A stretch of DNA of 64,000 bases from Gammaproteobacteria bacterium (GCA_040905045.1 JBBDSH010000050.1:7698-71697), one strand, 5' to 3'; positions 16,533-54,947 are shown, numbered from the stretch's first letter. Numbers and translations are program-made. Notes: generated by a model from the letters alone, not told the origin.

Positions 16533-16612
16533 TGTAACGCGCCACATGGTTTGAGATCGCAACGACAGATGGTTTGAGATCGTGCGGCGCACAAATACTA
16601 TTTACAAATAGT

Positions 16613-17053
16613 TTAAACGGTCTCTTCAGACGCCGCCAATATCTCTTGTCGCCGTGTCTCCGTCAGCAACCCGGCCTGCACCAGCAACGTCAGCCCCTCC
16701 TGGGTGTCGGGATCGTCGGCATAGACGCGGCGAGCGGTGCGTAGCATGTCGAGGTAGTCCTCGATGAGTGGCTCGGATTTGGCGGCAGTGCGAATATCGA
16801 TCCGCTCTTGGCGGGTGAAGCGGTCCAGGAAGGCTCTGGATGACCAGCTCGCCCGGGGCGCCGGCGCCGGCGGCCCGACCACCCGCAGCCCCGGGGGCGT
16901 TACGCCAGCATCGGCGATCAGTCCGTCCAGTTCCTGCCGGTTCAGTCCGATGCGTGCCAGCGTATCGTCGCCGGCGTGGTGCAGCGCGATCAGGGCGCGG
17001 TGATACTCCTCGCTCTGCAGAGTCTGCAGATGTTGTTTGCTTTCGATTTTCAT
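16613..17053 (-). CDS. hypothetical phage protein (last gene before the prophage end, downstream of the DGR RT)
   Basis: 146-aa ORF whose ATGA overlaps the RT stop; no recognisable motif. Confidence 0.4.
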   Translation of the reverse strand: MKIESKQHLQTLQSEEYHRALIALHHAGDDTLARIGLNRQELDGLIADAGVTPPGLRVVGPPAPAPRASWSSRAFLDRFTRQERIDIRTAAKSEPLIEDYLDMLRTARRVYADDPDTQEGLTLLVQAGLLTETRRQEILAASEETV

Positions 17054-18033
17054 GACGCGATCTCCAGATGACGTAACAGGTTGTGGCTGTCGGCCCAGTT
17101 GGCGTGGCCGGTCCAGGCGGCCAGGAATTTGGCCAGGGCCTCTTCATCGCCACGGGCACGCAAGGAGTTGATGGCGCGGCGTGCCCGCGTCACGCTGCTC
17201 CGGCGCAGCAGTTTGTGCTTGGGCCAGATGCGGTAGCCGAGGAAGTTGACGCCGCGGTTAACGGGCGCGAGTGTCCATTTGCTGAGTTTTAGACCGAGGC
17301 GTTCCTTGCTGACAGCTCGCATGGCGTTAAGCGTCTTTCGGAGGACGTCCGGGTCGTGGTGCAATACCACGATATCGTCCATATAGCGCGCCCAGTGTTG
17401 GTGTTTCAATTCCTGCTGCAGCAGCCGATCGATGACGCCGCCGTAAAGGTTGGCGAAGTACTGGCTGGTCAGGCTGCCGATGGGAATACCCTTTCCCTGG
17501 GCAGGCAGCATGGCATCGATGATTCTGAGCGTGCCGGCGCAGCTGATTTTCTTGCGGATCAATCCATGCAGAACCCGCCTGTCGATGCTGTAGAAGTAAC
17601 GGTGGAAATCGGTCTTGAGATAATACAGGCGCTGGTCCTGCCGCACGAGCCGGCGCATGTCGGACTGTACGGCCTTGACACCGGCGTGCGTGCCGAGGCC
17701 GGGCCGACAGGCGAAACAGCGCGGCAGGAGCATCGCCTCAATAACAGGACCGATGACATTGCACAGCGCGTGCTGCGCCACGCGGTCGCGGAACGGCAGC
17801 GCCGAGATCTGCCGGACCTTGGGTTCGGACACGAAAAACTGATGAAACGGTCCACGATAATAAGTCCCGTCGCGCAGCTCGCGGGCGAGTATCGCGAGAT
17901 TGACTTCGGCGTATTCCTTCCATTCCAGATAGCCGGCGGACTGACGCTTGCCCTTGAGCGTGCGCTCATAGGCCAGGCGCATATTGTCGTCGCTGACAAT
18001 CGTCTCGATGAGGTTGCGGTATTTCTTAGCCAT
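17050..18033 (-). CDS. diversity-generating retroelement reverse transcriptase
   Basis: 327-aa RT (BPP-1 Brt is 328 aa) with RT palm motifs and the DGR-specific IGxxxSQ signature (GIPIGSLTSQYFANLY) instead of QG. It lies 150 bp downstream of the template repeat. Confidence 0.85.
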   Translation of the reverse strand: MAKKYRNLIETIVSDDNMRLAYERTLKGKRQSAGYLEWKEYAEVNLAILARELRDGTYYRGPFHQFFVSEPKVRQISALPFRDRVAQHALCNVIGPVIEAMLLPRCFACRPGLGTHAGVKAVQSDMRRLVRQDQRLYYLKTDFHRYFYSIDRRVLHGLIRKKISCAGTLRIIDAMLPAQGKGIPIGSLTSQYFANLYGGVIDRLLQQELKHQHWARYMDDIVVLHHDPDVLRKTLNAMRAVSKERLGLKLSKWTLAPVNRGVNFLGYRIWPKHKLLRRSSVTRARRAINSLRARGDEEALAKFLAAWTGHANWADSHNLLRHLEIAS

Positions 18034-18182
18034 AATAATAAATGCCCGGCGCGGGTTTCGATGATCTACTCCCCGCTATCCGGAACCCCGCAGTGTATTC
18101 GCCGAAGCAGGTCAAGCGGGCTGACCACCACAAGGACAGCCGGCCTGCGCCGCCGTAACGGACGCAGAGCGAAATAAGGGTC

Positions 18183-18301
18183 GTCACTGCAGCCGCGCGC
18201 CCCGATGTTGCTGTTCGCGTTCGAGGGCTGATTGTTCCAGTTGGAACAGCGCGAACCGGCGATGGCGCCGTTGCTCCAGTTCCCGCCGAATAGCACGGCA
18301 T
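18183..18301 (-). repeat. DGR template repeat (TR), 119 bp
   Basis: 119-bp near-identical copy of 18758..18876. On the coding strand TR carries AAC/ATC codons (the TR frame reads NWSNGAIAGSRCSNWNNQPSNANSNIGARG) where VR has varied codons. Confidence 0.85.
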
Positions 18302-18312
18302 GCAAACCCCGC

Positions 18313-18681
18313 TCAACCTTTACGCCTCTTGCCGATCCACGTGCCCAGCATCTTTCCCGTTTCGGCCAGGTGCGTACTGGCAACCCGGTGCTGCTTCGGC
18401 GTGATGATGCGTCGCTGTGAATGGCTCATGAAGCGTAACCAGAACCGCAGATGCGCCAGTCCGGCATCCGCGGCATAAAGGCGGGAAACCTGATTCGACT
18501 TCCCGCCAACGATAAATAAATGCACCTGCTCCAGCATGGCCTGGAGGAACATGTCCCGTACGCGCCCGTGTTTGCGCGGAATGTTCTGCGCCACCGGATA
18601 CATGTAGTTAATGAATTTTTCATATTTCTCGACAATCGCCAATTGATCGACGGGCGCCCGTTCGTCCTTAACCGTCTCCAT
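18313..18681 (-). CDS. avd: DGR accessory variability determinant (Avd-like four-helix bundle protein)
   Basis: 122-aa basic protein between the target gene and TR. FIVGGKSNQVSRLYAADAGLAHLRFWLRF closely resembles the Bordetella phage Avd as recalled from memory. Confidence 0.75.
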   Translation of the reverse strand: METVKDERAPVDQLAIVEKYEKFINYMYPVAQNIPRKHGRVRDMFLQAMLEQVHLFIVGGKSNQVSRLYAADAGLAHLRFWLRFMSHSQRRIITPKQHRVASTHLAETGKMLGTWIGKRRKG

Positions 18682-18720
18682 ACTCTGCTCCTCGTTTGCG
18701 TTTCAAGTTTCATGAACGAC

Positions 18721-18740
18721 GGCAGCGCTACCGCGCTGCC
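18721..18740 (-). promoter_or_regulatory. GC-rich hairpin (8-bp stem, 4-nt loop) immediately 3' of VR/IMH
   Basis: ggcagcgc tacc gcgctgcc is a perfect inverted repeat that starts at the target-gene stop codon. It matches the DGR target-recognition hairpin described for BPP-1, and TR has no equivalent. Confidence 0.7.
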
Positions 18741-20080
18741 TATGCAAGTCTCAGGTGGTCACTGCAGCCGCGCGCCCCGATGATGCTGGCCGCGTTCGAG
18801 GGCTGACTGGTCCAGACGGAACAGCGCGAACCGGCGACGGCGCCGGCGCTCCAGTTCCCGCCGAATCGCACGGCATTGTCGACCTCGTAAGTCTCACCGC
18901 GGCCGCCGGTGATGTCTTCCCACGTGCCCGCCGCGGCGTCGGGATTGCTGCCGCCGAACTCCGAGCCCCAGATCCACATACACGCCGTCGCCTGGATCAC
19001 ACCCCAGCGCGAGGTGAACGCCTCATCGCCGTTGTTGCTGCCGCTGTTGGTGGTCGCGATCCCGGTCGTGACGGGATCGTTGCCGCGATCGACTTCCTCG
19101 CTGGTGCCGTAGGCCAGCGCGGCGAACTCCTGGTAGGACGGCGGGCGCTTGCCGTGCGCGGCCAGCACCTCGGTCAGATTCCACCAATTCGCGGCAGCGT
19201 AGACGCTGGTGCCGTTGCCGCCGAATGCGTCCGGGATCTTCGGCGCGTTGCTGTTATCCGCGATCGTCACACCGTGCGCCGATGTGCCGTTGATATGGTG
19301 ATCGACGCCGAGCAGGTAGATATCGGCCCAGAAATTCCCGGCGACCAGCGTCATGCCTCGCGGATCATCACAGGCCGGGCGCCATTTCAAATCCCAAAGT
19401 GAATACTCGTTGATCTGCGCCGTCGTGTTACCGCCCGCTTGTGCGCCGGCGTTGGAGCCCGGCGCGTAGTGGAAGCCACCGATACGGCGTGCATTGGCCA
19501 CTGGCGGCGAGGTGTAACTGCTGGTTGCCTCCAGCGTGCCATCCGGGTGAATCCAGATCACGTAATCCGTGCCTGCACTCGGCGAGCCGGGCATCGTGAT
19601 CGAGGTGCTGGCCGCGATCTCGTACACCGTGCCGTTGACCTCGATGGTCAGCGCCTGCGATGTCTCGGCGGTGAAGTTACCGGTCTTGGTCCAGGCGACG
19701 GTGGTGGGATCGGATTTGGCGAAGAGGGCGGCGGGCAGTTCGCCGCCCGACGTAAATTCACTCCAGGATCCGGCAGTAAACTGATACCGCTTATCCTCGT
19801 CCTCGACGTACGCCCACCACCCATTATTGGGCGCGTAGTATTTCCACGCGCCGGCAACGCGCACGGCCACTTGGTTCTCGTTGGCGTCGCCCACCGGCAC
19901 GATGTAGCGAACGCCGTCGTTCGGCGTGCCGGGCAGGCTGGTGGTGCGCGACTTCACGCTGAGCTGGACGATGGCGCCCAGGCCGATCAGGTTCTCGTCG
20001 TTTTCCGTGTGCCAGCCGTTGAAGCCGAGACCCCAGGCGTATTTGATCCAGTTCAATATAGGGTGCGTGCTTGGTGCCAT
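18740..20080 (-). CDS. DGR target protein: Mtd-like tail fiber/receptor-binding protein with C-terminal C-type-lectin-fold variable region
   Basis: The C-terminal ~40 aa (FGGNWSAGAVAGSRCSVWTSQPSNAASIIGARGCSD) are encoded by VR. The gene follows the truncated J-like tail-tip gene. Confidence 0.8.
   Translation of the reverse strand: MAPSTHPILNWIKYAWGLGFNGWHTENDENLIGLGAIVQLSVKSRTTSLPGTPNDGVRYIVPVGDANENQVAVRVAGAWKYYAPNNGWWAYVEDEDKRYQFTAGSWSEFTSGGELPAALFAKSDPTTVAWTKTGNFTAETSQALTIEVNGTVYEIAASTSITMPGSPSAGTDYVIWIHPDGTLEATSSYTSPPVANARRIGGFHYAPGSNAGAQAGGNTTAQINEYSLWDLKWRPACDDPRGMTLVAGNFWADIYLLGVDHHINGTSAHGVTIADNSNAPKIPDAFGGNGTSVYAAANWWNLTEVLAAHGKRPPSYQEFAALAYGTSEEVDRGNDPVTTGIATTNSGSNNGDEAFTSRWGVIQATACMWIWGSEFGGSNPDAAAGTWEDITGGRGETYEVDNAVRFGGNWSAGAVAGSRCSVWTSQPSNAASIIGARGCSDHLRLA
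18758..18876 (-). repeat. DGR variable repeat (VR), 119 bp, at the 3' end of the target gene
   Basis: Differs from TR at 11 positions; 10 of these are TR coding-strand adenines (AAC->GCC/GTC/ACC/AGC/ATC, ATC->GTC). The eleventh is a non-adenine difference at the 5' edge. Confidence 0.85.
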
Positions 20081-22290
20081 CAGGCGAGCCCTCCGTAATC
20101 GTTACCGTAATGCCGGCCGTAACCGGCCAGGCGAATTTCCTCGCGGCGCTGCTGTTGCCAGTTGGTGTAGCCGTCGCGCAGCGCGTCGATCTCCCAGGTG
20201 ATGTGACCCAGCGCGGCGCCGTCGTTGAGTTCCTTCGCCTCGTCGTAGATGTATTCGTCGCCGGTCAGCCCGGTGACCAGGCGGCGCGATGTGCCGGTCT
20301 CGCCGTCGCGGATGCGCACGTTGTACGTGGTGCCGGCTTCCGGGCCGATGGGGCCGGCGTCCTGATCGATCAGCTCCGCCGTCTGCAGCGTGCGGTCGCG
20401 GTGCGCCCAGTTCAGCGTCGGCACGCCGCTGACTTCCTCCGGCCAGTCTTCGCCGTTCACCCGGATCTGGCCGGGCGGGTACGGCCGGATGAAGCGCGAG
20501 TCGAAAGTAATGTTGTCCGTCGGCGCGCTGGCCACATCCAGCCGTCCTAAAGAAGTAGACGGCAACACGCGCACGTTCGCCGTCTCGCTGTCGACAAATT
20601 CCGTCGTCGGTGTGGCCTCGAAGTTCTGGCCGAAGAAGATCCGCGCGCCGCTGCTGTGCGCGTTTGGCACGGTATCAATGACGCCGCGATTCACCGTCAG
20701 CGTGCCGGCGCCGATGTCGATATCGGTGACCTCGACGATCTCGCCGTCCAGGTACGCCCACGTGCCTGCCTCGACGAGATCCAGATCTTCCGTTGCCGTG
20801 CTGTTGTCGATGGGCAGCACGGTCTGCTGAGGCGTAATGTCATCGGTGATCGTTGTGGTCGGCGCGAAGTTGCCGGGCGGGCCGATGCGCTCGTAGACGC
20901 CGCCGACGTTTTCCATCACAAGAAAGTTAAACGCGTCGCTGCTCGGCCGCACGGCGTTCACCACCAGAAAGCCGCTGGATTCGTCGATGCCATCGAGCAC
21001 GGCATCGGAGTCCGCCACTTCGCGCGCCACCTGGTAGTACGTCGCCTCGGTGAGCAGCCGGAACGGCGCCGGCGCCGGCGTGCTGCGCGGGTCGATCCAG
21101 TCCGTCGGTGTCGGATCGGCGAACTCGGAATCGACCAGCGAGAACACATCCTGCACCGCGTTCACGGTGATGGCGCGATCGGTGAGCGTGCCGTAATTGA
21201 CCTTGGCGATCCGGATCACCATTGAGGTGATCCCGTATTCCGGCCAGCTGAATAGATACACATCGCCCGGCCGGATAGCGTCCTGATCGGACGTGAGCCG
21301 CAGCTTCATCTGTGCCAGCGGCGCGGAGAGCTGGCGCAGGTCGCGGGAACAGACGCGGTTCGCCAGCGCGCCCTTGGTGATGCCGGTGTAGCGATGCGTG
21401 CGGTTGATCACCTGGCCGCCCTGGATCTGCAGCGCCGCGAGATTCTGGATCGTGACGGATCGTTCCTTCCAGGTGGGCTCGTCGTCCTCTCCGTCGATGT
21501 AGGTGACGGTCATTTCGTTCACCAACTCGCCCCAGCCGGGTACCTTGTAATCCAGCACCTCGATGATGTTGGTGTTGTCCAGCGTCTGGAGATTGCCGAC
21601 GGTGTAATCGTCCCGCGCCAGCTTCAGAGACCACAGGCCCGTGGTCGGATCTTCGTAGAGCGAGGCATCGATGTGCTGCAGCACGGATTGAATGAAGCCC
21701 TCGATATCGAGATTCTCATCCGTCCACAGGAAAGAGAGGCCGAAGCCCTCGCTGGCCAGCGTCGATCGCGCGGCGTTGAAGGCATCGACATCGACGCGCG
21801 ACTCGCTGTAGCCCATGCCCCAGTCCTTGCTGGTGATCAGCTCATAGAGAATATGCGCCGGGTTCGCATCATTTCCGATCAGTCCGCTGCCGGCGCCGCT
21901 CCATCCATTCGGCGTGCGCCGGCCGGTCGCCGCCCAGTTCTTGAAACGCGGTATATTGCCCAGATAAGGGCGCTTTAAAACGGCCGCAACAATACCTCGA
22001 AAGGCCGGGATCGCCGCGCCCAGTTGCGAGACCAGGTAACTGTTCGCGGTCTGCGCTTCGCCGCCCATCTCGATATCCACATCGCCGGACACGCCGCCCT
22101 CGCGATCCTCGCCGCCGAACAGTTCTTCCTCGTCGATGCTGATGGTGCCGCCGCTGGTCTCGCCCTGCCAGGCGACGCGATCGCCGACGCGGATCTCGGT
22201 GATGTTGTCGATGGGTCCACGGCACCAGGCCAGATGCATGCCGACGTAATACTTATACCCGACCGTGATCTCCTGACTCTTACCGCCCAT
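20080..22290 (-). CDS. phage tail tip / host-specificity protein J-like (N-terminal Phage-tail_3-type portion only)
   Basis: 736 aa; it resembles the lambda J N-terminal/central region (e.g. NPAHILYELITSKDWGMGYSESRVDVDAFNAA) but lacks the J C-terminal receptor-binding part. Confidence 0.55.
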   Translation of the reverse strand: MGGKSQEITVGYKYYVGMHLAWCRGPIDNITEIRVGDRVAWQGETSGGTISIDEEELFGGEDREGGVSGDVDIEMGGEAQTANSYLVSQLGAAIPAFRGIVAAVLKRPYLGNIPRFKNWAATGRRTPNGWSGAGSGLIGNDANPAHILYELITSKDWGMGYSESRVDVDAFNAARSTLASEGFGLSFLWTDENLDIEGFIQSVLQHIDASLYEDPTTGLWSLKLARDDYTVGNLQTLDNTNIIEVLDYKVPGWGELVNEMTVTYIDGEDDEPTWKERSVTIQNLAALQIQGGQVINRTHRYTGITKGALANRVCSRDLRQLSAPLAQMKLRLTSDQDAIRPGDVYLFSWPEYGITSMVIRIAKVNYGTLTDRAITVNAVQDVFSLVDSEFADPTPTDWIDPRSTPAPAPFRLLTEATYYQVAREVADSDAVLDGIDESSGFLVVNAVRPSSDAFNFLVMENVGGVYERIGPPGNFAPTTTITDDITPQQTVLPIDNSTATEDLDLVEAGTWAYLDGEIVEVTDIDIGAGTLTVNRGVIDTVPNAHSSGARIFFGQNFEATPTTEFVDSETANVRVLPSTSLGRLDVASAPTDNITFDSRFIRPYPPGQIRVNGEDWPEEVSGVPTLNWAHRDRTLQTAELIDQDAGPIGPEAGTTYNVRIRDGETGTSRRLVTGLTGDEYIYDEAKELNDGAALGHITWEIDALRDGYTNWQQQRREEIRLAGYGRHYGNDYGGLA

Positions 22291-22474
22291 CGTGTTCCTC
22301 CCGCGCGGCGTCCACCACCTTCATGGCCATCGGATCGCCGGTCGCGATCAGCGCCTCGGCCTCGATGCCGTTACGCACGAAGCCGCGCCAGTCCAGATCG
22401 TGACGGGCAAACCAGCGCCGCGCGCCGCGCGCGCAATGATGCGCCTGGCGCAAATGGCGGACGTGGACCTTCAC
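22280..22474 (-). CDS. small hypothetical phage tail-module protein
   Basis: 64-aa ORF filling the gap between the 79-aa and J-like ORFs, with ATGA-type overlaps on both sides. Confidence 0.3.
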   Translation of the reverse strand: MKVHVRHLRQAHHCARGARRWFARHDLDWRGFVRNGIEAEALIATGDPMAMKVVDAAREEHDGR

Positions 22475-22710
22475 TTCTTGCCTCCCTTACTCTTGATCGG
22501 CACCGTGCGCAGGTCGCCGTACCAGATCACATTGGGCGCCTTCATTTGCCGGCGGCCGAACAACACCGGGATCGGCTTGCCTTCCTCGGCGGTCGGCACG
22601 TCCAGCTCGCCCAGCTTGGCCGGCTCCGGAATATTCTGCCCGGCGCCCGGCCGCAGGAACGCGCTGATCGCGAAGCTGACGACGAGGAATGCAATCTGCC
22701 ACCACACCAT
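22471..22710 (-). CDS. small membrane-anchored phage tail protein
   Basis: 79 aa with an N-terminal TM helix, translationally coupled to the L-like gene. Confidence 0.4.
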   Translation of the reverse strand: MVWWQIAFLVVSFAISAFLRPGAGQNIPEPAKLGELDVPTAEEGKPIPVLFGRRQMKAPNVIWYGDLRTVPIKSKGGKK

Positions 22711-22712
22711 GA

Positions 22713-23462
22713 TCAGAACACCGGATCGGAGCCGAAGGGATTGATGCGCGGTATAAACGGCATGCCGCCGTAGTTCACCACGTTGTCGAACTTGTCGATG
22801 CAGGTCTGCCTGTCGTGCGCGCAGCCAGCGAAAGCGGCGACGTCCTCACCGACCTCGGAATCGATCAGCGGCGAGGACAGCGTGATGGTGTCGCCGGCGT
22901 GATCGACGATGGCGCGCCGCTGGTTGCCGTACTCCACATAGCCGGCGATAAACCAGCCGTCCTCCTTCGTATCGAACTCCGCCGCCGAGAGCGTCAGATC
23001 CGTGCGCGCCGTCAACGTCGCCAGCACACGGAAGTCGTTGCGCACCACCTTGCAGTTGTCGTCGTAGAGCGCGTGCCGGCAGAGTTTCTGATAACGCGCG
23101 TGCAGGCCGGTGCGCTTCATGGAACTGAAAATCGGCTCGCACTGCAGGACCACCTCCGAGCCGGACCAGGCCGCCGTCAACACCCGGCCGGTCCAGATCA
23201 CCACCGTCGCCTCATCGTCCTGCTGGAAGATATCCAGCTCCATCACGGTGGCCGGCGCGCCGCCGACGAACAGCGCGGCCACGCCGGCGTCGCGCGGCAG
23301 CCGCACGCTGATCCGGGCGCGGGCGATTTCCTCGGTGTGTTCGATCTCGTTGCGGCGCACGTAGATGGGATCGTAGTCCTGGCCGTCGTGCGTTACCTTG
23401 CTTGGCGATGTCGTGTAACCGAACACCAGGCCTGCGACGACGAATCGGTACAGCTCGATCAT
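22713..23462 (-). CDS. minor tail protein L-like
   Basis: 249 aa whose C-terminal cysteine cluster CAHDRQTCIDKFDNVVNYGGMPFIP resembles the lambda gpL C-terminus. Confidence 0.5.
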   Translation of the reverse strand: MIELYRFVVAGLVFGYTTSPSKVTHDGQDYDPIYVRRNEIEHTEEIARARISVRLPRDAGVAALFVGGAPATVMELDIFQQDDEATVVIWTGRVLTAAWSGSEVVLQCEPIFSSMKRTGLHARYQKLCRHALYDDNCKVVRNDFRVLATLTARTDLTLSAAEFDTKEDGWFIAGYVEYGNQRRAIVDHAGDTITLSSPLIDSEVGEDVAAFAGCAHDRQTCIDKFDNVVNYGGMPFIPRINPFGSDPVF

Positions 23463-25102
23463 TCCACGGCCCTCATCGTCAGCATCGCCTGGATTTTGTC
23501 ATCGGTAATCCAGGCGATCTCGATGGCGTCGCTATCCAGGCGCACGGTCTCCAGCCAGCAGACGCGGCGGATCTCGCTGCGCGTCAGGCGGGTATCGGTG
23601 AGCGCGCGATCCAGTGTCAGCGTTTCCTCATCGCCGACGACGTCGCCGGCCAGCACATAGGCGAAGTGCCACTCGTCGTCAATGTCCTCGACGGCGATGA
23701 GGTTGCGGTTGGCGCGGCCGTCGTAATAATTGCTCCAGTTGATCGGTTCGATGCGCAGCACCGATTCGTCCGCCTCGATGGCGCCGGTCAGTACCATGTC
23801 CGCCGACCAGGTGGGATAACGGAAGGCGTTCAAGCGGCCGGCGCGCGCCAGCAGCCAGGCGATGAAGCCGTCCGCATCATCACGCGTCCAGAAGTTGAAC
23901 CGCCAGCGGTGGCTCTGGATGGGATCGTCGTCCGGATCGTCCACCAGGATCAGGCCGCCGGGCGCGTCGATGCGCACGCCGGCGCGAGCGTAATCCACGC
24001 CGCCGCTGCGCGCCCAGTTCGGCTGCACCAGGTAGACGGGCAGGCCGTCGAAAGTGGTCTCGCTCTCCGCCGCCTCATACGTCGTCGCGGTGTCTTCATC
24101 GGCGATGAATTCCAGCTCGCCGGAAAAGAACGCATCCGTGCGCCGGGAAAAGCCCACCTCCTGATCGATGTACATCAGCCGCGCCGGGTACACGCTCGTG
24201 CCTTCCGGCCAGGTGTTCGAGAGCGGGTGCTGTATCGTGATCGCGTCGGGCTCGATGGCCTCGATCACCGGCGCCTCGTAATCGAGATCCTCATCGATCA
24301 GCACCAGCTGCGATCCGATCCGCCACTCGCCGACGCCGGTGTCCACGGCCAGCGTGATCTCGCCTGCGCTCGCCGTTGCGTTCAGGCGGGCGCGGTCCAT
24401 CCAGCGCGGCACGTTAAACAGGCGCGATTGCCAGCCCGACAGCAGCGCGTCCACCAGCGGCACGTGCTCGCCGGCGACGCGATAGCTGAGGCCGCGTCGC
24501 GGCCGCGTGAGGATCTTCGTTCGCACCTCATTGCCGGCGCGCGCCCGCTGCAGATCCGTGCGCCAGATCCAACGCTCGATGACCGACTCGGACCATTCCG
24601 GCGGCACCGGCCAGGCCTGCGCCACCAGGCGGCTGCCCTGGATGATCAGGACCGCGTCCGTGTCCGAGTCGAACACGATCAGCGCGTCGATGATCTCCGG
24701 CCCGTCCAGCGTCACGTCCACGTCGTAGAGTGCGGACTTGCGCGCCTCGATGGGGAACGGCGTCGCCGGATGATTGATGGTGATGCCGGTATCGCCCGTC
24801 TTCGCCACGTCCGTGATCGAGGCATCCGTATCGCCGGCGTTGTAGACGGCGGCCTGATCCGACACCGGCTGGCGGATGGTACCCAGCTGAATCGAGCCCG
24901 GGATCGCGTGCAGGCGATCGGCCCAGTCGCGATCGTAATACATCGGTACCGGCGCGCCGTTTTCTATGTTGCTGGTCACCGGCACCGGCACAGTTTTTAT
25001 GGTCCGCGTGACGGACAGCACGTCCTCGATGTCCTCCGCCGCCAGCGCGATGGCGGCGGGCAGGATGGGATCGGAAGCGAGAATGCCGTCGACGATCGCC
25101 AT
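23459..25102 (-). CDS. phage tail protein (distal tail/baseplate-like)
   Basis: ~547 aa from the ATG at 25100..25102; the track ORF start at 25264 would overlap the upstream gene by 160 nt. Confidence 0.45.
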   Translation of the reverse strand: MAIVDGILASDPILPAAIALAAEDIEDVLSVTRTIKTVPVPVTSNIENGAPVPMYYDRDWADRLHAIPGSIQLGTIRQPVSDQAAVYNAGDTDASITDVAKTGDTGITINHPATPFPIEARKSALYDVDVTLDGPEIIDALIVFDSDTDAVLIIQGSRLVAQAWPVPPEWSESVIERWIWRTDLQRARAGNEVRTKILTRPRRGLSYRVAGEHVPLVDALLSGWQSRLFNVPRWMDRARLNATASAGEITLAVDTGVGEWRIGSQLVLIDEDLDYEAPVIEAIEPDAITIQHPLSNTWPEGTSVYPARLMYIDQEVGFSRRTDAFFSGELEFIADEDTATTYEAAESETTFDGLPVYLVQPNWARSGGVDYARAGVRIDAPGGLILVDDPDDDPIQSHRWRFNFWTRDDADGFIAWLLARAGRLNAFRYPTWSADMVLTGAIEADESVLRIEPINWSNYYDGRANRNLIAVEDIDDEWHFAYVLAGDVVGDEETLTLDRALTDTRLTRSEIRRVCWLETVRLDSDAIEIAWITDDKIQAMLTMRAVE

Positions 25103-30286: not shown

Positions 30287-30297
30287 GATCGCTTACC

Positions 30298-30525: not shown

Positions 30526-30538
30526 GGTCTCGTTCTCC

Positions 30539-31894: not shown

Positions 31895-31898
31895 ACGA

Positions 31899-44057: not shown

Positions 44058-44069
44058 AAGGAGGGAACC

Positions 44070-47486: not shown

Positions 47487-47884
47487 TCGCTGTTACGGAA
47501 ATCGACGACGATCTGCTGCCGGACTCTTTGAAACCGATTGCGGATCTCATCGGCCTGCCGGCGACCATCAGCCTGGTGGAATCCTACGGCGGCGTGCGGA
47601 TATATATCCCGCGGAGTCCCGGTGAGGATCACCCGCTGGTGCAGCGCATCGGCCTCGAGGCCGCCGAGTCACTGGCGCGGATCTACGACGGTGAGCCGGT
47701 GGAATTACCGATGGCCTCGGCCGCGCTGCGCGACGCTCGCGACAGGGAACTTCTGCGCCGTGCCGATGAGGGCTGCAGCATCAATGCACTGGCGCAGGAG
47801 TTCGGCCTGTCCCGCCGCCAGGTCTTCCGCATCCTGTCACGACTTCGTCGCCTGAACCCGGGTGACGCGCGTCACCCTGATTAA
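47483..47884 (+). CDS. mor: Mor-family transcriptional activator (middle/late operon regulator)
   Basis: C-terminal HTH NALAQEFGLSRRQVFRILSR and a Mor-like N-terminus. Confidence 0.65.
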   Translation: MIAVTEIDDDLLPDSLKPIADLIGLPATISLVESYGGVRIYIPRSPGEDHPLVQRIGLEAAESLARIYDGEPVELPMASAALRDARDRELLRRADEGCSINALAQEFGLSRRQVFRILSRLRRLNPGDARHPD

Positions 47885-47912: not shown

Positions 47913-48494
47913 ATGTCCAGTCAAACATTCGATCGACTCGCCGCACCCTGGATCCTGCGCAGGGATGTGGAGGGCGGTTTCTCCGACCATCGTAACGATC
48001 GCGGCGGCGCCACGAATTTCGGTATCTCCATTCATTTGATGGAGTTGCTGCCGGACGGCAACGACGACGGCTATCTCGACGGTGACATCAACAAGGACGG
48101 CGTCATTGATATCGAGGACATTCACGCCCTGGACGACGATCGCGCCCTGGATATTTACTACCGTTATTTCTGGCGGCCGAACCGCTGCGAGGATCTGCCG
48201 CCGGCCGTCGGCCTGTGTCTCTTCGACGGCCTGGTCAATCACCAGCCGAACCCCGCGCGCCGTTTGCTGCAGGAAGGTCTGGAGGTGTTGGCCGACGGCA
48301 AGGTCGGCCCGATCACGATCGGCGCCGCGCACAAGATCAGTCCGGACTACTTCCTGCCGAACTACCTTTCCCACCGCGCGCGGTTCTACACCGACATCGT
48401 CCGTGCGGATACATCGCAGTCCACGTTCCTGCGCGGCTGGTTAAAGCGGATGTTCCTGCTGCAGCAATTCATTATGAAGGAGATCAAACCATGA
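47913..48494 (+). CDS. endolysin (GH108 N-terminal domain plus peptidoglycan-binding domain) with an EF-hand-like insertion
   Basis: EGGFSDHRNDRGGATNFGIS matches the GH108 motif; it contains the loop DGDINKDGVIDIED. Confidence 0.65.
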   Translation: MSSQTFDRLAAPWILRRDVEGGFSDHRNDRGGATNFGISIHLMELLPDGNDDGYLDGDINKDGVIDIEDIHALDDDRALDIYYRYFWRPNRCEDLPPAVGLCLFDGLVNHQPNPARRLLQEGLEVLADGKVGPITIGAAHKISPDYFLPNYLSHRARFYTDIVRADTSQSTFLRGWLKRMFLLQQFIMKEIKP

Positions 48495-48925
48495 GAGTCA
48501 TTTTATCCATTGTATTTGTCGCGTTGCTGGCCGGTTGCAGCACTTACGCCGGCAAAAGCAAGCTGCGCGATCATGCGAACCTCGAAGATTATAACCCGCA
48601 GAATTTCCAGGGATGCACCGTCGGCCAGTACAAAATCCCGGATATTGCGACCCGCGAAACGGGCGACACTGATAATAAGGGGCTGGCTCCCGGCGCCACG
48701 ATCACCTGGTGGGATTGCAAAGACAAGGCACACGTCAGCGGCAAGATGGATTTGACGGGTGACGGTAAGCCGGACTTTGAATACAGGGCCGACGATGTGG
48801 ACGGCTCAACAGCCGCCAAGATACGCGCCGATCTCGAAGCGCGGTTTGCCGAGGCCGGCGTGGAAGGCGCCGGCAAGGCAGCCTGTCTCGCGATGGCCAG
48901 CATGGGCATTCCGTGTAGAGACTGA
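48491..48925 (+). CDS. lysis-cassette lipoprotein (o-spanin or unimolecular spanin candidate)
   Basis: Signal peptide plus lipobox LLAGCS; it overlaps the endolysin stop by 4 bp. Confidence 0.45.
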   Translation: MRVILSIVFVALLAGCSTYAGKSKLRDHANLEDYNPQNFQGCTVGQYKIPDIATRETGDTDNKGLAPGATITWWDCKDKAHVSGKMDLTGDGKPDFEYRADDVDGSTAAKIRADLEARFAEAGVEGAGKAACLAMASMGIPCRD

Positions 48926-48928
48926 TCT

Positions 48929-49300
48929 GTGCCGGAAACCCGCGACGGCCTCGCCTGCCCGCAATCGTTCCTCGACGCGCCGGATGAACTCCGGCGCCAG
49001 GTGTGTAACGGCTGCGGGTCGGCGCAGGCGAAGTTCGATTTCATTCCGGACACGGTCTGGTTTCTGCCGATCCGGAAAGCCTGCGACATTCATGACTGGA
49101 TGTACGCACAAGGCCGGGACATCGAGGACAAACGCCAGGCCGATCGCGTGTTCCTCAACAACATGCTGCGGCTGGTCGAACGCGAGCGCGGCATCGTCGG
49201 CCGGCTGCTGAAACCGCTGCGCCGCCGGCGGGCGCTGAAGTATTACGAGGCGGTGAACGCCTTCGGCGGGCCGGCCTTCTGGTCGGGCAAGAATGGATGA
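48929..49300 (+). CDS. hypothetical phage protein in the lysis region
   Basis: 123 aa with a GTG start. Confidence 0.3.
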   Translation: MPETRDGLACPQSFLDAPDELRRQVCNGCGSAQAKFDFIPDTVWFLPIRKACDIHDWMYAQGRDIEDKRQADRVFLNNMLRLVERERGIVGRLLKPLRRRRALKYYEAVNAFGGPAFWSGKNG

Positions 49301-49502
49301 AGCCGATCACGCGCAGCGCTGGGAAGAACGGGAGCGCGCATTATCACTGGGCGCGGTGCTCGGCGCCGCGACCGAAGAGCACGTCATCATCGACGGAGAG
49401 GTAGTCTGTATGGACTGTAGTACGCCGCTGCCGCAAGAGCGTTTGAAAGCACACCCGCGTGCACTACGGTGCGTGCCGTGTCAACAGAACCGGGAGGCCT
49501 GA
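49293..49502 (+). CDS. TraR/DksA-family C4 zinc-finger protein
   Basis: CMDCSTPLPQERLKAHPRALRCVPCQ. Confidence 0.6.
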   Translation: MDEADHAQRWEERERALSLGAVLGAATEEHVIIDGEVVCMDCSTPLPQERLKAHPRALRCVPCQQNREA

Positions 49503-49867
49503 TGCTGGAAGCTGACCTTAACAACATGATCGAGATCGCCAAATTTTTTTGGATGATCACCATCTCCATCGCCTCCGCCGGCGCCTGGATCTACGCCTGG
49601 TTGAGTCAGAAGCGGTCGGCGACGCTGGATCGCGTCGAGGCCTCCGAGCGCCTGCTGAATGAAATGGCGCATCGGCTGACCTCGCTGGAAAAGGACGTGA
49701 TGCACGGCCCGACGCACAACGACATCCAGGAGCTGCACGGCCGCATCACCGATTTACAGAGCAGCCTCGATAGATTGATCGGCGGTATCGACGCCTGGGG
49801 CGATACCTACAAGGCCATGAACGAGCAGCTGATCAATATCAACAGTTACCTGCGGGAGCACAAGTAA
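49502..49867 (+). CDS. membrane protein with coiled-coil (DUF2730-like; holin or i-spanin candidate)
   Basis: Start is probably ATG 49502; it has a TM helix (FFWMITISIASAGAWIYAWL) followed by a coiled-coil. Confidence 0.4.
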   Translation: MLEADLNNMIEIAKFFWMITISIASAGAWIYAWLSQKRSATLDRVEASERLLNEMAHRLTSLEKDVMHGPTHNDIQELHGRITDLQSSLDRLIGGIDAWGDTYKAMNEQLININSYLREHK

Positions 49868-49869
49868 TC

Positions 49870-50166
49870 GTGCCCTACAACGAGCACATCGCCAGGGCGC
49901 GCCGTCTCCGGCTGCTGCGCATACTCCACGAGGCGGACGGCTACCGGCTGAACGATATCATGCTCGGCAAGCTGCTGGACAATTACGGCTATAACGTCAG
50001 CAACGATCAGCTGCGCACTGACGCCGCCTGGCTGTCCGAACAAGGGCTCGTCACGGTGCAGGATTTCGACGATGTGCAGCTCATCAGTCTTACGCAACGC
50101 GGCGCCGACGTCGCGGCCGGAAAGATCACCACGCCTGGCGTCGACCGGCCCGCACCGGGGCGGTAA
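49870..50166 (+). CDS. hypothetical phage protein upstream of the terminase genes
   Basis: 98 aa with a GTG start. Confidence 0.3.
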   Translation: MPYNEHIARARRLRLLRILHEADGYRLNDIMLGKLLDNYGYNVSNDQLRTDAAWLSEQGLVTVQDFDDVQLISLTQRGADVAAGKITTPGVDRPAPGR

Positions 50167-50168
50167 CG

Positions 50169-50696
50169 ATGCCGAAAGCCTCCAGCGTCACGCAACTCGA
50201 TCCTGCGATCCGTGAAGCGGTGAATCGCGCGATACGTGAGGAACGCGCCACCATCGATCAGATCGTCGCGCTCATCGAAGACATGGGCGGCGAGGCCTCT
50301 CGATCGGCGGTCGGCCGTTACAAGAAAAACGCCGAGGAGCAGATGGAAATATACCGCGAGGCGCAGGAAGTCGCCAAGGTCTGGATCGGCAAACTGGAAG
50401 AGGATCCGGAAAGCGACATCGGCCGGTTGCTCTCGGACTTGTTGCGCACCGTCGCCTACCAGACGATGGGCACGATGAAGGGGGGTAAAGCCAAACCGGC
50501 CGAGGTGATGTACCTCGCTAAGGCACTGAAAGAAGTCGCCAGCGCCGACAAGATCAGCACCGAGCGCGAGCTGAAGATCCGCCAGGAGGTGGCGAAGAAG
50601 GCGGCGGATAAGGCGGAGACCGTCGGCCGGCAGATGGGGCTGTCCGCAGATCAGCAAACCAATCTGAAAAAAGAATTGTTGGGGATCGTCGGGTGA
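50169..50696 (+). CDS. DUF3486-family protein (Mu gp27-like small terminase subunit)
   Basis: 175 aa, basic N-terminus, immediately upstream of the large terminase gene. Confidence 0.55.
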   Translation: MPKASSVTQLDPAIREAVNRAIREERATIDQIVALIEDMGGEASRSAVGRYKKNAEEQMEIYREAQEVAKVWIGKLEEDPESDIGRLLSDLLRTVAYQTMGTMKGGKAKPAEVMYLAKALKEVASADKISTERELKIRQEVAKKAADKAETVGRQMGLSADQQTNLKKELLGIVG

Positions 50697-52306
50697 GTAC
50701 GCTCGAAGCCGGATTGCTACTGGAGTATCAGAAGCGGTGGGTCGCCGACGACTCGCCGCTAAAGGTATCCGAGAAAGGTCGGCGAACGGGCATTACCTGG
50801 GCGGAGGCTGCCGACGATGTATTGATCGCGGCGACCGACCGCGCGCACGGGGGGCTGAATGTCTATTACTTCCCGCAAGCGCACGATGATTCCATTGAAT
50901 ACATCGAGGCTTGCGCGCGCTGGGCGCAGGCATTCGGCCACGCCATCGAGGAACAGGCATGGGAAGGCACATGGGAGGATGAACTCGGTGTCGTCCTGCC
51001 CGGCGACGATCCCGACAAGCACATCCAGACCTACAAGATCCGCTTCGCCAGCGGTAACCGTATCGTTGCACTCTCATCCGCGCCCAGCCGCGCGCGCGGC
51101 AAGCAGGGCATTTTCGTGCTCGACGAGGCGGCATTCCATCCGAACATGCCCGGCGTGCTCAAAGCTGTCATGGCCGCGCTTCTGCGCGGCGGCAAGGTGC
51201 GCGTGATCTCGACGCACAACGGCGAGGACAACCCGTTTAATGAGCTGCTCTCCGAGATCCGCGCCGGCCGGCGCAAGGGCACCGTGCATCGCTATCCGTT
51301 CAAGCTCGCCGTCGAACAGGGTATGTATAAACGGATCTGTGAAATGGAGATGGCGCGCCGGGAAAAGGCCGGGCTCGATCCCGTCGAGGCGCAATGGTCA
51401 CAAGAGAAAGAAGATAAATACGTCGCCGATGCGTATGCGTTCTACGGCGATGATGCCGAGGAAGAGCTGGACGCGGTACCGAAGTCCGGTACCGGCACGT
51501 TCCTCTCCGGCGCGCTGATCGAGGCGCGCATGAAGGCCGCGCCCGTTCTGCGGCTGCAGTACGATGATGCGTTCGCCCATAAGCCGGAACGTGTTCGCTG
51601 GAGTGAGTGCCAGGCCTGGATCGAGGATCACCTGGCACCGTTGATCAATACGCTCGATGAAAATCTTGAGCACTGCCTCGGCGGTGACTTCGGTCGTACC
51701 GGTGATCTGTCCGTGTTCGGTCCGCTGGAAATAGGCCGTGACCTGGTGCGTCGTTGCCCGTTCCTGGTCGAACTGCGCAATGTGCCATTTGCTCAGCAAG
51801 AGCAGATCCTCTGGTACATCCTCGATCACCTGCCACGGTTGCGCGCGGCGGCACTGGATGCGCGCGGGATCGGTCACCACCTCAGTGAATTGACCTGGCA
51901 GCGGTATGGCGTGTCGCGCGTGGAGCCGGTGATGCTCTCTGTGGAATGGTATCGCGAGAACATGCCTGCATTCAGAACGGCGTTTGAGGACGCGGAGATT
52001 GAAGTGCCGAAGGACGCCGACGTGCTCAAGGATCTGCGCTCCATCAAAATGGACAAGGGCGTCGCGAAGATCCCGGACAATTACAAGGGCACCGGCACCG
52101 ACGGTAAACCCCGCCACGGCGACGCGGCGGTCTGCCTGTTCCTCGGTCACTATGCCAGCCGCATGGAAGTCGCGCCAATCGATTATCAGTCCACCGGCGT
52201 ACGCCGCATGGGCGAGATTGCAGACGGCGCACCGCCGGGTCGCCGCCGCCTGGACGACGTCGGCTTCGGCGCCGTCGCCGGCCGCAATGATTTCGGAGGC
52301 TATTAA
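50693..52306 (+). CDS. terminase large subunit (Mu gp28-like)
   Basis: 537 aa with ATPase and nuclease halves, positioned between DUF3486 and the portal. Confidence 0.7.
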   Translation: MSTLEAGLLLEYQKRWVADDSPLKVSEKGRRTGITWAEAADDVLIAATDRAHGGLNVYYFPQAHDDSIEYIEACARWAQAFGHAIEEQAWEGTWEDELGVVLPGDDPDKHIQTYKIRFASGNRIVALSSAPSRARGKQGIFVLDEAAFHPNMPGVLKAVMAALLRGGKVRVISTHNGEDNPFNELLSEIRAGRRKGTVHRYPFKLAVEQGMYKRICEMEMARREKAGLDPVEAQWSQEKEDKYVADAYAFYGDDAEEELDAVPKSGTGTFLSGALIEARMKAAPVLRLQYDDAFAHKPERVRWSECQAWIEDHLAPLINTLDENLEHCLGGDFGRTGDLSVFGPLEIGRDLVRRCPFLVELRNVPFAQQEQILWYILDHLPRLRAAALDARGIGHHLSELTWQRYGVSRVEPVMLSVEWYRENMPAFRTAFEDAEIEVPKDADVLKDLRSIKMDKGVAKIPDNYKGTGTDGKPRHGDAAVCLFLGHYASRMEVAPIDYQSTGVRRMGEIADGAPPGRRRLDDVGFGAVAGRNDFGGY

Positions 52307-53844
52307 TGGCCACGTATATACAGACTAAAGGTGGTTTAATCGTCCCGGAAAGTTTCGCTGAGCCGGTACCGCAAGAGCGGCCCGGCCGCCCGGACATGAA
52401 CGAGGTCGCCACCACGCGCGATGGTCGCGATATCACGCGCGGCTACGTCGATCCCATGATGCTATTGCAGCCGCAGGATTCCGTTCTGCGTCTGCGCGGC
52501 AATATCAATTATCAGATTTACAAGGAAGTGCTGCGTGACGATCAGGTCAAGACGGCGTTTGAACAGCGCCAGCGTGCCGTCGTCGCGCGCGAATGGGAAG
52601 TGATGCCCGGCGGCGATCGGCCCATCGATCAGGAAGCGGCCGACTACGCACGCGAGCAGCTGAAGGCGCTCAACTTCGACGCCGCTACCGACAAGATGCT
52701 GTACGGTATTTTCTACGGTTACGGTGTGGCGGAGATACTATGGGCGCGGGACGGCAATCGCGTCATCATTGATCAGGTCCGCGTGCGCGATCGCTCCCGC
52801 TTCGCCTTCGACGGCGCCATGCGTTTGCGCCTGAAAACCATGAGCAATCCCATGCCGGGCGAGGAAGTGCCGGACCGCAAGTTCTGGCACTTCGCCAACG
52901 GCGCCGACCACGATGACGAGCCTTACGGTCTCGGCCTCGCGCACTGGTTATATTGGCCGGTGTTCTTCAAACGCGGCGGCATCCGGTTATGGATGACGTT
53001 CCTGGATAAGTTCGGCGCGCCGACGGTCAAAGGCGAGTATCCGCCCAACGCCACGCCGGCGGAAAAGACGAAACTGCTGAACGCACTGGAAGCCGTAAGC
53101 AGTGAGTCCGGCGTGATCATTCCGGAAGGCATGGCCATCGAATTACTGGAAGCGGCGCGCACCGGATCGGCGTCGTATGAAAAGATGTACGATCGCATGG
53201 ACAAGGCCATCGCGAAAGTTATCATCGGCCAGGTGGGATCGACGGAAGGCACGCCCGGCCAGCTCGGCGATCAGGAATCTCAGAGCGATGTCCGTGCCGA
53301 CCTGGTCAAGGCCGACGCGGATATCATCTGCAGCTCGTTTAATCGCACGGTGCTGCGCTGGCTGACCGAGTTTAATTTCCCCGGCGCCATGCCGCCTCAG
53401 GTCTGGCGCAAGATGGAAGAAGAAGAGAATCTTACTTCCATCGCCGAGCGTGACAAAACGCTGTCCGATATCGGATTCCGGCCCACCGAGGATCGCGTCC
53501 GCGATGTTTATGGGGACGGCTACGAATACGCGCCGCCGCAGACACCGCCGAGCCTGCCGCCGCAGTTCGCCGAACCGGCCCGGCGTGACAGCACTGATGA
53601 TGTCGATCAGATCGATGACGAGGCGGACAAGCTGGCCGAGGACTGGGAGCGCACGCTCGGCCGTCGAGTGAATGACATTATTGCGATGGCCGAGGACACC
53701 AACGACTTGCAAACATTCCGCGAACGCCTGCGCGAACTCGCCGCCGCCGAACCGGATGACCAGGTTGTCGAGCAGTTCCGCCGTCTTGGATTCATCGGCC
53801 GCTTGTGGGGACGCTGGCGTGCCGGACGCGGCCGTGACGAATGA
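52306..53844 (+). CDS. portal protein (DUF935, Mu gp29-like)
   Basis: 512 aa at the typical position between the terminase and the MuF-like gene. Confidence 0.7.
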   Translation: MATYIQTKGGLIVPESFAEPVPQERPGRPDMNEVATTRDGRDITRGYVDPMMLLQPQDSVLRLRGNINYQIYKEVLRDDQVKTAFEQRQRAVVAREWEVMPGGDRPIDQEAADYAREQLKALNFDAATDKMLYGIFYGYGVAEILWARDGNRVIIDQVRVRDRSRFAFDGAMRLRLKTMSNPMPGEEVPDRKFWHFANGADHDDEPYGLGLAHWLYWPVFFKRGGIRLWMTFLDKFGAPTVKGEYPPNATPAEKTKLLNALEAVSSESGVIIPEGMAIELLEAARTGSASYEKMYDRMDKAIAKVIIGQVGSTEGTPGQLGDQESQSDVRADLVKADADIICSSFNRTVLRWLTEFNFPGAMPPQVWRKMEEEENLTSIAERDKTLSDIGFRPTEDRVRDVYGDGYEYAPPQTPPSLPPQFAEPARRDSTDDVDQIDDEADKLAEDWERTLGRRVNDIIAMAEDTNDLQTFRERLRELAAAEPDDQVVEQFRRLGFIGRLWGRWRAGRGRDE

Positions 53845-54668
53845 CGGTATCGATCCGGTTCGATTTGCCGCCCGAACGGGCGCTCGAGTTTTTTCAGAAG
53901 AAGGGACTGGCGACATCGTTTGCCTGGCAGGACCTGCTTCACCAGGAACACGAGGCCGCGTTCACCGTCGCCAAGATGATGGACATGGATCTGCTTTCCG
54001 ATGTGCGCGACGCCGTGGAGCGTGCCATCACGGACGGTATCAGCTTCGAGGATTTCCGCGCCGAGCTGGAACCGACGCTGGCCGATCGTGGCTGGTGGGG
54101 AAGAAAGGAGATGACCGACCCGCAGACTGGCCAGGTCCGCGAGGTCCAGCTCGGATCGCCGCGCCGGTTGCGCACCATCTATCAGACGAACCTGCGCACG
54201 GCCTATGCCGCCGGCCACTGGGATCGCATTGTGGACACCGCCGAGGAAGCGCCGTTCCTCTTATACGATGCTGTCCTCGACGAACGCACGCGGCCGGAGC
54301 ACGCCGAATGGGATGGCACATTGTTGCGCTACGACGATCCCTGGTGGGAAGATCATTACCCGCCGAACGGCTGGAATTGCCGCTGCTCGGTGGTCCAGCT
54401 CGACGCCGATCAGGCGCAGGCCATCCTCGGTAAATCCGCGCCGGATACGCCGCCCAGCGACCCGGCGCGTGAATGGGTGAACCCGCGTACGGGCGAGGTG
54501 CAGCAGGTACCGCGAGGCATCGATCCGGGATGGAACTATCATCCCGGACGCGCGCGCACAGCAAAGCTGAGGCAGGATTTTACGGACAAGGTGCGCGGTG
54601 CCGGCACAATCGGCGCCAGCGCTGCAGCGGCACTGGAACGCGCCCTGGATAATTTGAATTTACAGTGA
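53841..54668 (+). CDS. MuF-like head morphogenesis protein (gp30/F)
   Basis: Phage_Mu_F-like C-terminal half (HAEWDGTLLRYDDPWWEDHYPPNGWNCRCSV). Confidence 0.7.
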   Translation: MTVSIRFDLPPERALEFFQKKGLATSFAWQDLLHQEHEAAFTVAKMMDMDLLSDVRDAVERAITDGISFEDFRAELEPTLADRGWWGRKEMTDPQTGQVREVQLGSPRRLRTIYQTNLRTAYAAGHWDRIVDTAEEAPFLLYDAVLDERTRPEHAEWDGTLLRYDDPWWEDHYPPNGWNCRCSVVQLDADQAQAILGKSAPDTPPSDPAREWVNPRTGEVQQVPRGIDPGWNYHPGRARTAKLRQDFTDKVRGAGTIGASAAAALERALDNLNLQ

Positions 54669-54947
54669 TATCAGGACGTTACAGCGAAGATCGATCTTTC
54701 GCACTTCAGGATCGATCTTCCAGTTGAAAGTGCGATCCCTGATCGTTGATAATTCAGCGACTTACAGAATTATGAGATCGCAATCCATCTGTCGCTATGA
54801 TCGATGTTCGGAGAAACCATGTGGCGAAGATCGATCTTCCGGAATTTTTGCGCGCCGCTTATAACCATTTGAAACCTGTTTATTTATCCCGTTATATCCC
54901 ATTTAATCCCGCGCGATCCCGGATCTCAATCCATCTGTCCGATCACA

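Follow-up and report, generated by a model that had tools for sequence, protein, structure and literature searches.

Gene content and boundaries of the prophage

The stretch of DNA analysed here, hereafter the window, comprises 64,000 nucleotides from a Gammaproteobacteria bacterium (GCA_040905045.1 JBBDSH010000050.1:7698-71697), and its positions 16533..54947 are occupied by one intact Mu-like transposable siphophage prophage of 38.4 kb. The repressor gene c lies in the middle of this element and two divergent arms extend from it to both termini, an order that is an inherited trait of the phage lineage. The gene for MuF (F) is found at the right terminus, and that for the Mu I-like head protease/scaffold (I) is transcribed leftward near c, with F and I on opposite sides of the element and on opposite strands. 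The gene map was built from a listing of open reading frames (ORFs) combined with Pfam and PHROGs scans, and RNA genes were sought with Rfam and ARAGORN. In gene content, strands and coordinates of both arms, the map agrees with the original prediction, which had been made from the sequence of the window and had already described the central repressor (c at 36395-36817, minus strand; ner from 36854, plus strand), the divergent arms and the separation of F from I. The main features are as follows.

16528..16532: left copy of the 5-bp target-site duplication GGACG, identical to 54948-54952
16533..16581: left terminus, TG-start, with two adjacent transposase-site repeats at 16541-16558 and 16564-16581
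16613..20080, minus: diversity-generating retroelement (DGR), comprising an accessory ORF, reverse transcriptase (RT), RNA, template repeat (TR), bAvd and Mtd-like target gene
20080..30973, minus: siphovirus tail module, including J-like protein, hub, assembly proteins and DUF6631 (Pfam, PHROGs)
31475-31894, minus: Mu gp36-like head completion protein (Pfam, E = 1.4e-41)
32629-33684, minus: major capsid protein (phrog_1005, E = 1.5e-91)
33727-34137, minus: cement protein/DUF2190 (Phage_cement_2)
34140-35315, minus: Mu I-like head protease/scaffold (phrog_976, E = 2e-118)
36395-36817, minus: c-type helix-turn-helix (HTH) repressor (Pfam HTH_3, HTH_19)
36854..47884, plus: early operon, ner to Mor (Pfam, PHROGs)
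36854-37063, plus: ner, followed by a second HTH gene
38229-40406, plus: transposase A (Pfam rve, Mu-transpos_C, HTH_Tnp_Mu_1)
47483-47884, plus: Mor
47913..54668, plus: first late block, with endolysin, lysis genes, DUF2730, gp27, TerL, portal and MuF (Pfam, PHROGs)
53841-54668, plus: MuF, overlapping the portal gene
54776..54947: right terminus (...CA-3'), with repeats at 54922-54939 (terminal) and 54776-54793 (146 bp further in)
54948..54952: right copy of the target-site duplication GGACG, identical to 16528-16532

The element opens with TGTAACG at 16533 and closes with GATCACA at 54947, giving it TG...CA ends; its right terminus reads ...CCGGATCTCAATCCATCTGTCCGATCACA. The repeat GATCTCAANCCATCTGTC has four matches in the 64 kb, compared with 0.12 expected, all of them at the termini, two per end and in inverted orientation. 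The TG...CA ends, the terminal transposase-site repeats and the 5-bp duplication show that the element was inserted as one unit. The right terminus is 279 bp beyond the MuF stop codon and the I start codon is 18.8 kb from the left terminus. The two host flanks, when joined, rebuild one long imperfect palindromic element with the phage at its centre.

By the features used in the Saltoviridae proposal this is a Mu-like transposable phage: it encodes a Mu-type DDE transposase and a MuB-like AAA+ ATPase; it has TG...CA termini, inverted repeated transposase sites and a 5-bp duplication, and its relatives share the terminus, while their flanks differ; and GemA, Mor, the Mu-type portal, gp27, MuF and gp36 are all present above Pfam gathering scores. 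The prophage gene set is complete and non-redundant, without obvious truncations. Mor, the sole gene of the Mor/C family found in the window, is followed on its arm by lysis and packaging genes that span 6.8 kb.

Several minor observations concern the ends. The intergenic palindrome arms in the host flanks (16440-16532 and 54953-55075) have GTTCCGAAyTCCAGTACrGTT and GGGTCATGGGGCATT in common, and the reconstructed empty host site folds as a single long hairpin. Clustering of GATC was considered as a mark of the ends or of the CCGGATCG region to the left of c, and proved not distinctive, with 624 GATC sites spread throughout the window.

The two-armed order in related phages

Relatives were collected from IMG/VR, JGI, ENA, Logan and NCBI; loci are designated L001 and so on, and homologues of transposase A are designated P0002-P0005. 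These four are the closest homologues of A (55-57% identity), originate from different samples (JGI, ENA, Logan) and correspond to loci L088, L090, L091-093 and L162. P0002 comes from contig Ga0502761_0001696 (JGI 3300050206). In a quick neighbour-joining tree the four form one clade with the A protein of the window. In each of the four lineages the genes for the tail tube, tail terminator, gp36, capsid and I-like protein are on the minus strand, followed by cargo genes and c, with ner-A-B on the plus strand; the plus arm continues with GemA, Mor, lysis genes and gp27 wherever the contig reaches that far. The full two-armed layout is found on a single contig of 36,134 bp (NCBI, JACCDH010389802.1; L119/L153), the A protein of which is 43% identical to that of the window. 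One strand of this contig encodes gp36, capsid and I, and the other A, B, Mor, lysis proteins, gp27, TerL, portal, MuF and G, with the terminus ...CATCTGTCGGTTCACA located about 505 bp past G and followed by 126 bp of flank. Thus, the clade defined by A retains the architecture, and a second A clade of the neighbour-joining tree, the one containing L119, has it too.

The right end was traced in two IMG/VR loci, L001 and L002, in which TerS, TerL, portal and MuF are 67-76% identical to those of the window. The two loci are the same through ...CCGGATCTCAAACCATCCGTAACTTAACA, about 500 bp past MuF, and their sequences part right after that CA; the right terminus of the window aligns at this point of divergence. 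More generally, metagenome contigs of relatives break or diverge at the phage termini. In the same two loci, insertions of about 1.4 kb (L001, 8625-10001) and 0.5 kb (L002, 7972-8518) separate portal from MuF, the genes of which overlap in the window.

Other relatives have the canonical order. All 76 relatives of the I protein in IMG/VR (at most 49% identity over the full length, up to 62% over the best segment) show portal-MuF-(G)-I-capsid wherever the upstream genes are on the contig. The same order is present in two loci selected by MuF, L115 and L116 (62-66% identity; L115 62%), and in loci with A proteins at 44-46% identity (L011/L085 and L158). The nearest deposited phages by A (at most 36.5% identity) all have A near a genome end, and Chromohalobacter phage YPCBV-1, which provides the best DNA match to I, is canonical as well. 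A profile search of genome contigs with the A alignment returned only relatives at 37% identity or less, none of them with head genes within 10 kb upstream of A, and these relatives therefore fit the canonical layout. An over-long I ORF used as query in the genome-contig search gave no match, and an exact-sequence look-up of the window I protein returned no record.

A locus from ENA, L160 (ERZ24825765, 37,721 bp; A 46% identical), has the appearance of a B3-type phage (see below), its early arm finishing with Mor where the contig ends and its other arm carrying the repressor, lysis, terminase and portal genes; it follows that several layouts coexist among fairly close transposase relatives. 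Comparison of gene order among relatives had been set beforehand as the test of whether the locus was rearranged, and on this comparison the two-armed order is an inherited lineage trait.

Paired dyads upstream of both late blocks

The original prediction had proposed a divergent lineage architecture with separate late promoters and had suggested looking for a Mor/C-type binding motif upstream of the lysis-terminase block and of I. A shared candidate motif is present: a perfect 18-bp dyad lies at both sites in the window, and corresponding pairs occur in relatives, as listed below.

35354..35371, minus: GGGTGACGCGCGTCACCC, predicted Mor-type activator site (PI equivalent), centre about 48 nt upstream of the I start
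47860..47877, plus: second copy of GGGTGACGCGCGTCACCC, predicted activator site (Plys equivalent), centre about 45 nt upstream of endolysin ATG 47913
L088, 8001 and 20071: dyad GGGGACATATGTCCCC
L090, 4257 and 19156: dyad GGCTGACATATGTCAGCC
L091/L092, in L091 at 5446 and 20524: dyad CCTGAAGTACTTCAGG
L119: dyad TAACCnnGGTTAATA, with copies TTAACCCAGGTTAATA upstream of I (about 8180) and CTAACCTGGGTTAATA upstream of endolysin (about 19152)

In the 64 kb of the window GGGTGACGCGCGTCACCC has exactly two copies, even when three mismatches are allowed, with centres at 35362/35363 (leftward) and 47868/47869 (rightward). The rightward copy overlaps the last codons of mor and precedes the likely endolysin ATG at 47913. 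L088, L090, L091 and L119 each have their own dyad at the same two sites, namely, at or after the mor stop before the lysis genes and upstream of I. On both arms the flanking similarity runs a few bases past the dyad toward the downstream genes. The distance from the lysis-side centre to a plausible start codon is 43-46 nt in the window, L088, L090, L091, L115 and L119, while the I-side centre is 48 nt from the start codon in the window, 46 nt in L088 and 79-126 nt in the others.

Perfect palindromes of at least 14 bp that occur more than once were not found in canonical-order loci. Word matching in the canonical locus L115 did reveal an imperfect pair, GGCGGAAnnnnTTCCGCCTTATT, once after mor and again within the 314-bp gap between MuF and I. 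Because L115 has a dyad copy in this gap, a second promoter appears to pre-exist at the F|I junction. In Mu, the Plys transcript spans the lysis genes through F/G, and the PI transcript begins at I. The genome split of the window phage would accordingly fall, by analogy with Mu, at the natural Plys/PI boundary between late operons.

The predicted Mor recognition helices vary between the phages in step with their dyads, and the two phages with a common TGAC-N4-GTCA core have the most similar helices. In Mu, the dyad recognized by a Mor dimer has its centre at -43.5 of Pm, and the sites of C at Plys, PI, PP and Pmom are dyads of a related kind (PMC4287176; PMC4461284). From the paired dyads, the L115 pair, the single Mor gene, the covariation of helix and dyad and the biology of Mu we infer two Mor-dependent late promoters.

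Proposed regulation and alternative explanations

The account that we favour, and consider probable as a whole, is that of one intact prophage with an inherited two-armed order, split at the Plys/PI boundary and expressing two divergent late operons fired by Mor. In the lysogen, the leftward repressor transcript would also express the accessory gene for an outer membrane protein (OMP) that lies downstream of c, and would halt at a hairpin terminator. Once the prophage is induced, transcription would proceed rightward through the early operon (ner, A, B, gam, dam, gemA and others), the last gene of which is mor. Mor, as the sole activator of the Mor/C family, would then bind the identical 18-bp dyad at two places and thereby fire both late operons. 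The first, just downstream of mor, would cover the lysis genes, small and large terminase, portal and MuF up to an attL-like right end; the second, starting left of the OMP terminator, would cover I, capsid, tail and DGR up to an attR-like left end.

Several observations weigh against this account or parts of it. The dyads are predicted to be Mor-dependent promoter sites, one per arm, from their position, their covariation with Mor and the analogy with Mu. L001 and L002, among the closest relatives, have no clean perfect dyad after mor. The window has two dyads only, though Mu has a separate PP promoter; a search of the window for a third dyad that might serve a tail promoter, with up to two mismatches, found none. 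The dyads stand at an unusually short distance from the start codons, and under the Mu geometry (-43.5) the predicted start sites of the window would be 1-4 nt before these codons. Since these sites abut the start codons, either the late messages would be leaderless or the geometry would differ; the lysis-side spacing of about 45 nt hints at leaderless messages. The terminator scan moreover picks up the window dyad, together with the T-rich tail that follows it, as a terminator-like hairpin with a 7-bp stem and a 4-nt loop. As for the architecture, the window I and capsid proteins are 49% and 57% identical to those of canonical phages, as opposed to 38-44% and about 24% to those of two-armed relatives. 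Given that they are nearer to canonical phages than to two-armed ones, the content of the structural arm has been exchanged, and the two-armed layout may have had more than one origin. Finally, the description of the left end as attR-like and of the right end as attL-like is by analogy only.

The alternative that fares best concerns the dyads, which might be terminators or insulators (where the early operon and the c-OMP transcript end) or might be bound by some other protein of phage or host. We regard this as unlikely. Besides the stem, loop and T-rich tail for which the scan lists the window dyad as terminator-like, this alternative is favoured by the position of the rightward copy right at the mor stop codon and by start codons merely some 45-48 nt from the dyad centre. 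Yet terminators need no sequence identity, and each phage holds the same sequence at both sites. The L090, L091 and L119 dyads are devoid of T-tails, and the 4-nt spacer of L115 is non-complementary, as is typical of a pair of protein half-sites; a protein site is for these two reasons more likely than a terminator. In addition, a strong terminator is already present ahead of the leftward copy, the flank similarity tracks the direction of the downstream gene on both arms, and in published cases Mor and C bind to dyads that immediately precede the -35 region (PMC4287176; PMC4461284).

A second possibility, raised in the original prediction as an inversion of about 19.8 kb, is that the layout is private to the window, created by a recent inversion of about 19 kb in the prophage or by a misjoined contig. 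The source is a metagenome-assembled genome, where misjoins occur, and the I relatives in IMG/VR, as well as L115 and L116, all have the canonical MuF-I order. This possibility is nonetheless very improbable. The target duplication is intact, and the flanks rejoin as one palindromic host element, giving an uninterrupted empty site on reconstruction. An I arm next to c recurs in five divergent relatives, one of them with both arms on a 36-kb contig; relatives conserve both junctions; the terminus follows MuF or G in three phages; and the dyad pair is located exactly where two-armed transcription requires it. Divergent relatives share both the layout and a Mu-type terminus after MuF, which for practical purposes rules out a misassembly as well as an inversion private to this genome.

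The third, that two defective prophage fragments lying side by side (one left over from a structural arm, the other from an early arm with packaging genes) simulate one phage, could draw on the different nearest relatives of the arms (I and capsid closest to canonical phages, A to the two-armed clade), but is scarcely credible given a single pair of inverted termini with one 5-bp duplication and no internal copy of the end repeat, a full gene complement, a length typical of transposable phages (37-39 kb, PMC8705779) and relatives carrying the same combination of arms.

Returning to the inherited two-armed order, its simplest origin would be a single ancient event in which the c-to-F block was inverted, with breakpoints just inside attL and at the PI promoter. 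The adjacent repeats of the left end resemble the layout of Mu attR, and the spaced repeats of the right end that of attL, which would fit such an inversion. A vestigial internal att site was sought in the gap between c and I, and no copy of the end repeat was found there.

Comparison with known transposable phages

Like the window phage, Mu and D3112 have c, ner, A, B, gam, gemA, mor, lysis, gp27, terminase, portal, F, I, capsid and gp36 genes and TG...CA ends with a 5-bp duplication. At Plys and PI their late promoters have activator sites in the form of dyads, to which the two dyads of the window would correspond. They differ in that c is near the left end, everything after ner is unidirectional and both late blocks follow the early operon. 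Mu moreover employs two activators (Mor, then C) and four late promoters, whereas the window phage has one gene of the Mor family and two dyads.

The statement of the original prediction that B3-like phages are likewise unidirectional downstream of c is incorrect, the early arm of B3 being inverted. Pseudomonas phage B3 (Beetrevirus, NC_006548) resembles the window phage as a transposable siphophage with a central repressor, two divergent arms, cargo downstream of c, a single Mor, GemA and a gp27-TerL-portal-F set; such a two-armed order has been named 'B3 genome organization' (PMC8705779). The window phage thus has the central regulatory genes and two opposed arms of the B3 type. It departs from that type in the other defining feature, an early arm that ends at GemA/Mor with all late genes behind the repressor: the last gene on the early arm of B3 is Mor, 124 bp short of the genome end, and both late blocks are behind c with F, G and I adjacent.

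Burkholderia phage KS10 (NC_011216) is Mu-like and, as in the window, has its head genes split at F|I, with MuF 205 bp from the genome end and I in mid-genome. The KS10 authors noted capsid genes about 11 kb apart as evidence of rearrangement (Goudie et al. 2008, PMC2628397). A terminal MuF and a mid-genome I in a separate transcription unit are therefore common to both phages, but KS10 is the mirror case: its lysis-terminase-portal-MuF block is on the repressor arm behind c and its I-capsid-tail block behind Mor, the opposite of what is seen in the window. KS10 is also a myovirus without DGR. A simple word search for matching dyad pairs in KS10 and B3 gave no clean shared dyad in KS10, its sole match being CCTAGGCCGTTTA. 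The motif CCTAGGCCGTTTA(A/T)A occurs upstream of the protease/scaffold gene in both KS10 (L156, about 18060-18080) and B3 (L157, about 19740-19760), and may be a conserved PI promoter element of these lineages.

The transposable prophages of Leptospira group TG1 also have two arms parted by regulatory genes (PMC8705779). Unlike the window phage, they are myovirus-like and without Mor/C genes, and the pilot protein (MuF-like) as described stays with protease and capsid (PMC8705779); no relationship in sequence between them and the window phage can be detected.

Transposable phages with two arms or a split head module have thus been published before, and the window clade adds a new permutation. 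In limited searches, no paper describing precisely this permutation was found, and no deposited phage with it among the detectable A relatives. The layout had been called unusual, which was overstated given the published layouts of B3, KS10 and the Leptospira prophages. Somewhat tentatively, the clade could be viewed as a fourth placement of two portable late operons (lysis-packaging and I-capsid-tail) on the repressor and early arms, the Mor dyad of each block making the shuffling tolerable. If this were true, the six or more Mor/dyad pairs would constitute a natural covariation set for the DNA recognition code of the Mor family. All four placements of the two late blocks are now exemplified, and gene order in transposable phages appears to have been reshuffled in units of whole operons, with breakpoints at activator-dependent late promoters. 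For annotation, this means that a Mu-like prophage whose repressor is central and whose head genes are found at either end is not to be flagged as broken or misassembled. The most useful by-product is the set of covarying Mor/dyad pairs; for regulation, the phage-specific paired dyads provide directly testable predictions of Mor-family specificity.

Two further loci, L159 (JGI 3300023283 Ga0255745_1000033) and L161 (NCBI DAIDLH010000008.1), are small Mu-like elements with A, B and GemA on one arm and a repressor, one or two Mor genes and a few tail/baseplate genes on the other. Host genes begin about 6-7 kb past A, leaving an early arm far shorter than that of a full phage, and the two may represent derivatives of Mu that are degenerate or satellite-like.

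Remaining genes and the cargo site

The other features of the two arms are listed here from left to right.

17050-18033, minus: DGR RT (Pfam RVT_1)
18044-18170, minus: DGR RNA (Rfam Phage_DGR, 101 bits)
18179-18301, minus: DGR TR
18313-18681, minus: bAvd (Pfam)
18740-20080, minus: Mtd-like gene (Pfam mtd_2nd), with the variable repeat (VR) 18754-18876 at its 3' end
20080-22290, minus: Phage-tail_3 (J-like)
22713-23462, minus: tail hub
26816-28921, minus: tape measure
29522-30286, minus: tail tube
30539-30973, minus: tail terminator
30966-31478, minus: Mu G-like protein (Phage_tail_S; Pfam, E = 1.8e-16)
35436..35457, minus: terminator-like hairpin and T-run (9 pairs, 7 of them G-C; tail TTTATTTTCT)
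35717-36355, minus: OMP beta-barrel accessory gene, a moron (Pfam OMP_b-brl, E = 1e-15)
36789..36817, plus: candidate sigma-70-like early promoter facing ner, TTGACT, 17-nt spacer, TATCAT (consensus match 10/12)
40271-41221, plus: B (Pfam AAA_22, TniB)
44070-44603, plus: Gam
45517-46023, plus: Dam
within 45693-46472, plus: GemA; DUF4031 is also in the early operon
50169-50696, plus: gp27 (TerS)
50693-52306, plus: TerL
52306-53844, plus: Mu portal

The DGR has an RT, Avd, the DGR RNA and a TR/VR pair that is 90% identical, with 10 of the 12 differences at TR adenines, and judged from its sequence it looks complete and active. A prophage-borne tRNA-Met (CAT; 32158-32233, minus strand; Rfam tRNA, 66 bits, and ARAGORN) sits in the gap between the gp36 gene and a small ORF beside the capsid gene.

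Between c and I, the OMP gene is co-oriented with c and begins 40 bp downstream of it. The hairpin at 35436-35457 would end the lysogenic c-OMP transcript ahead of the late promoter. In the 3' untranslated stretch of the OMP gene, upstream of the hairpin, there are CCGGATCG repeats (35563..35690; four direct copies and one inverted). The original prediction had considered the CCGGATCG region (35466-35716) as a candidate late promoter; this proposal is not supported. The region lies between the OMP stop and the hairpin and is not common to the other late block. The terminal transposase site begins with CCGGATC.

Cargo genes occupy the site between c and I in the window (35717-36355) and in L088 (8024-8980), L090 (4288-6082), L091 (5791-8177) and L162 (5796-6341). 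Their content is variable, with an OMP beta-barrel in the window as against a DUF6731 protein, a zinc-ribbon protein and several unassigned ORFs in the relatives. The place behind c, which a putative terminator would insulate, is thus a recurrent cargo site, which is of relevance to lysogenic conversion.

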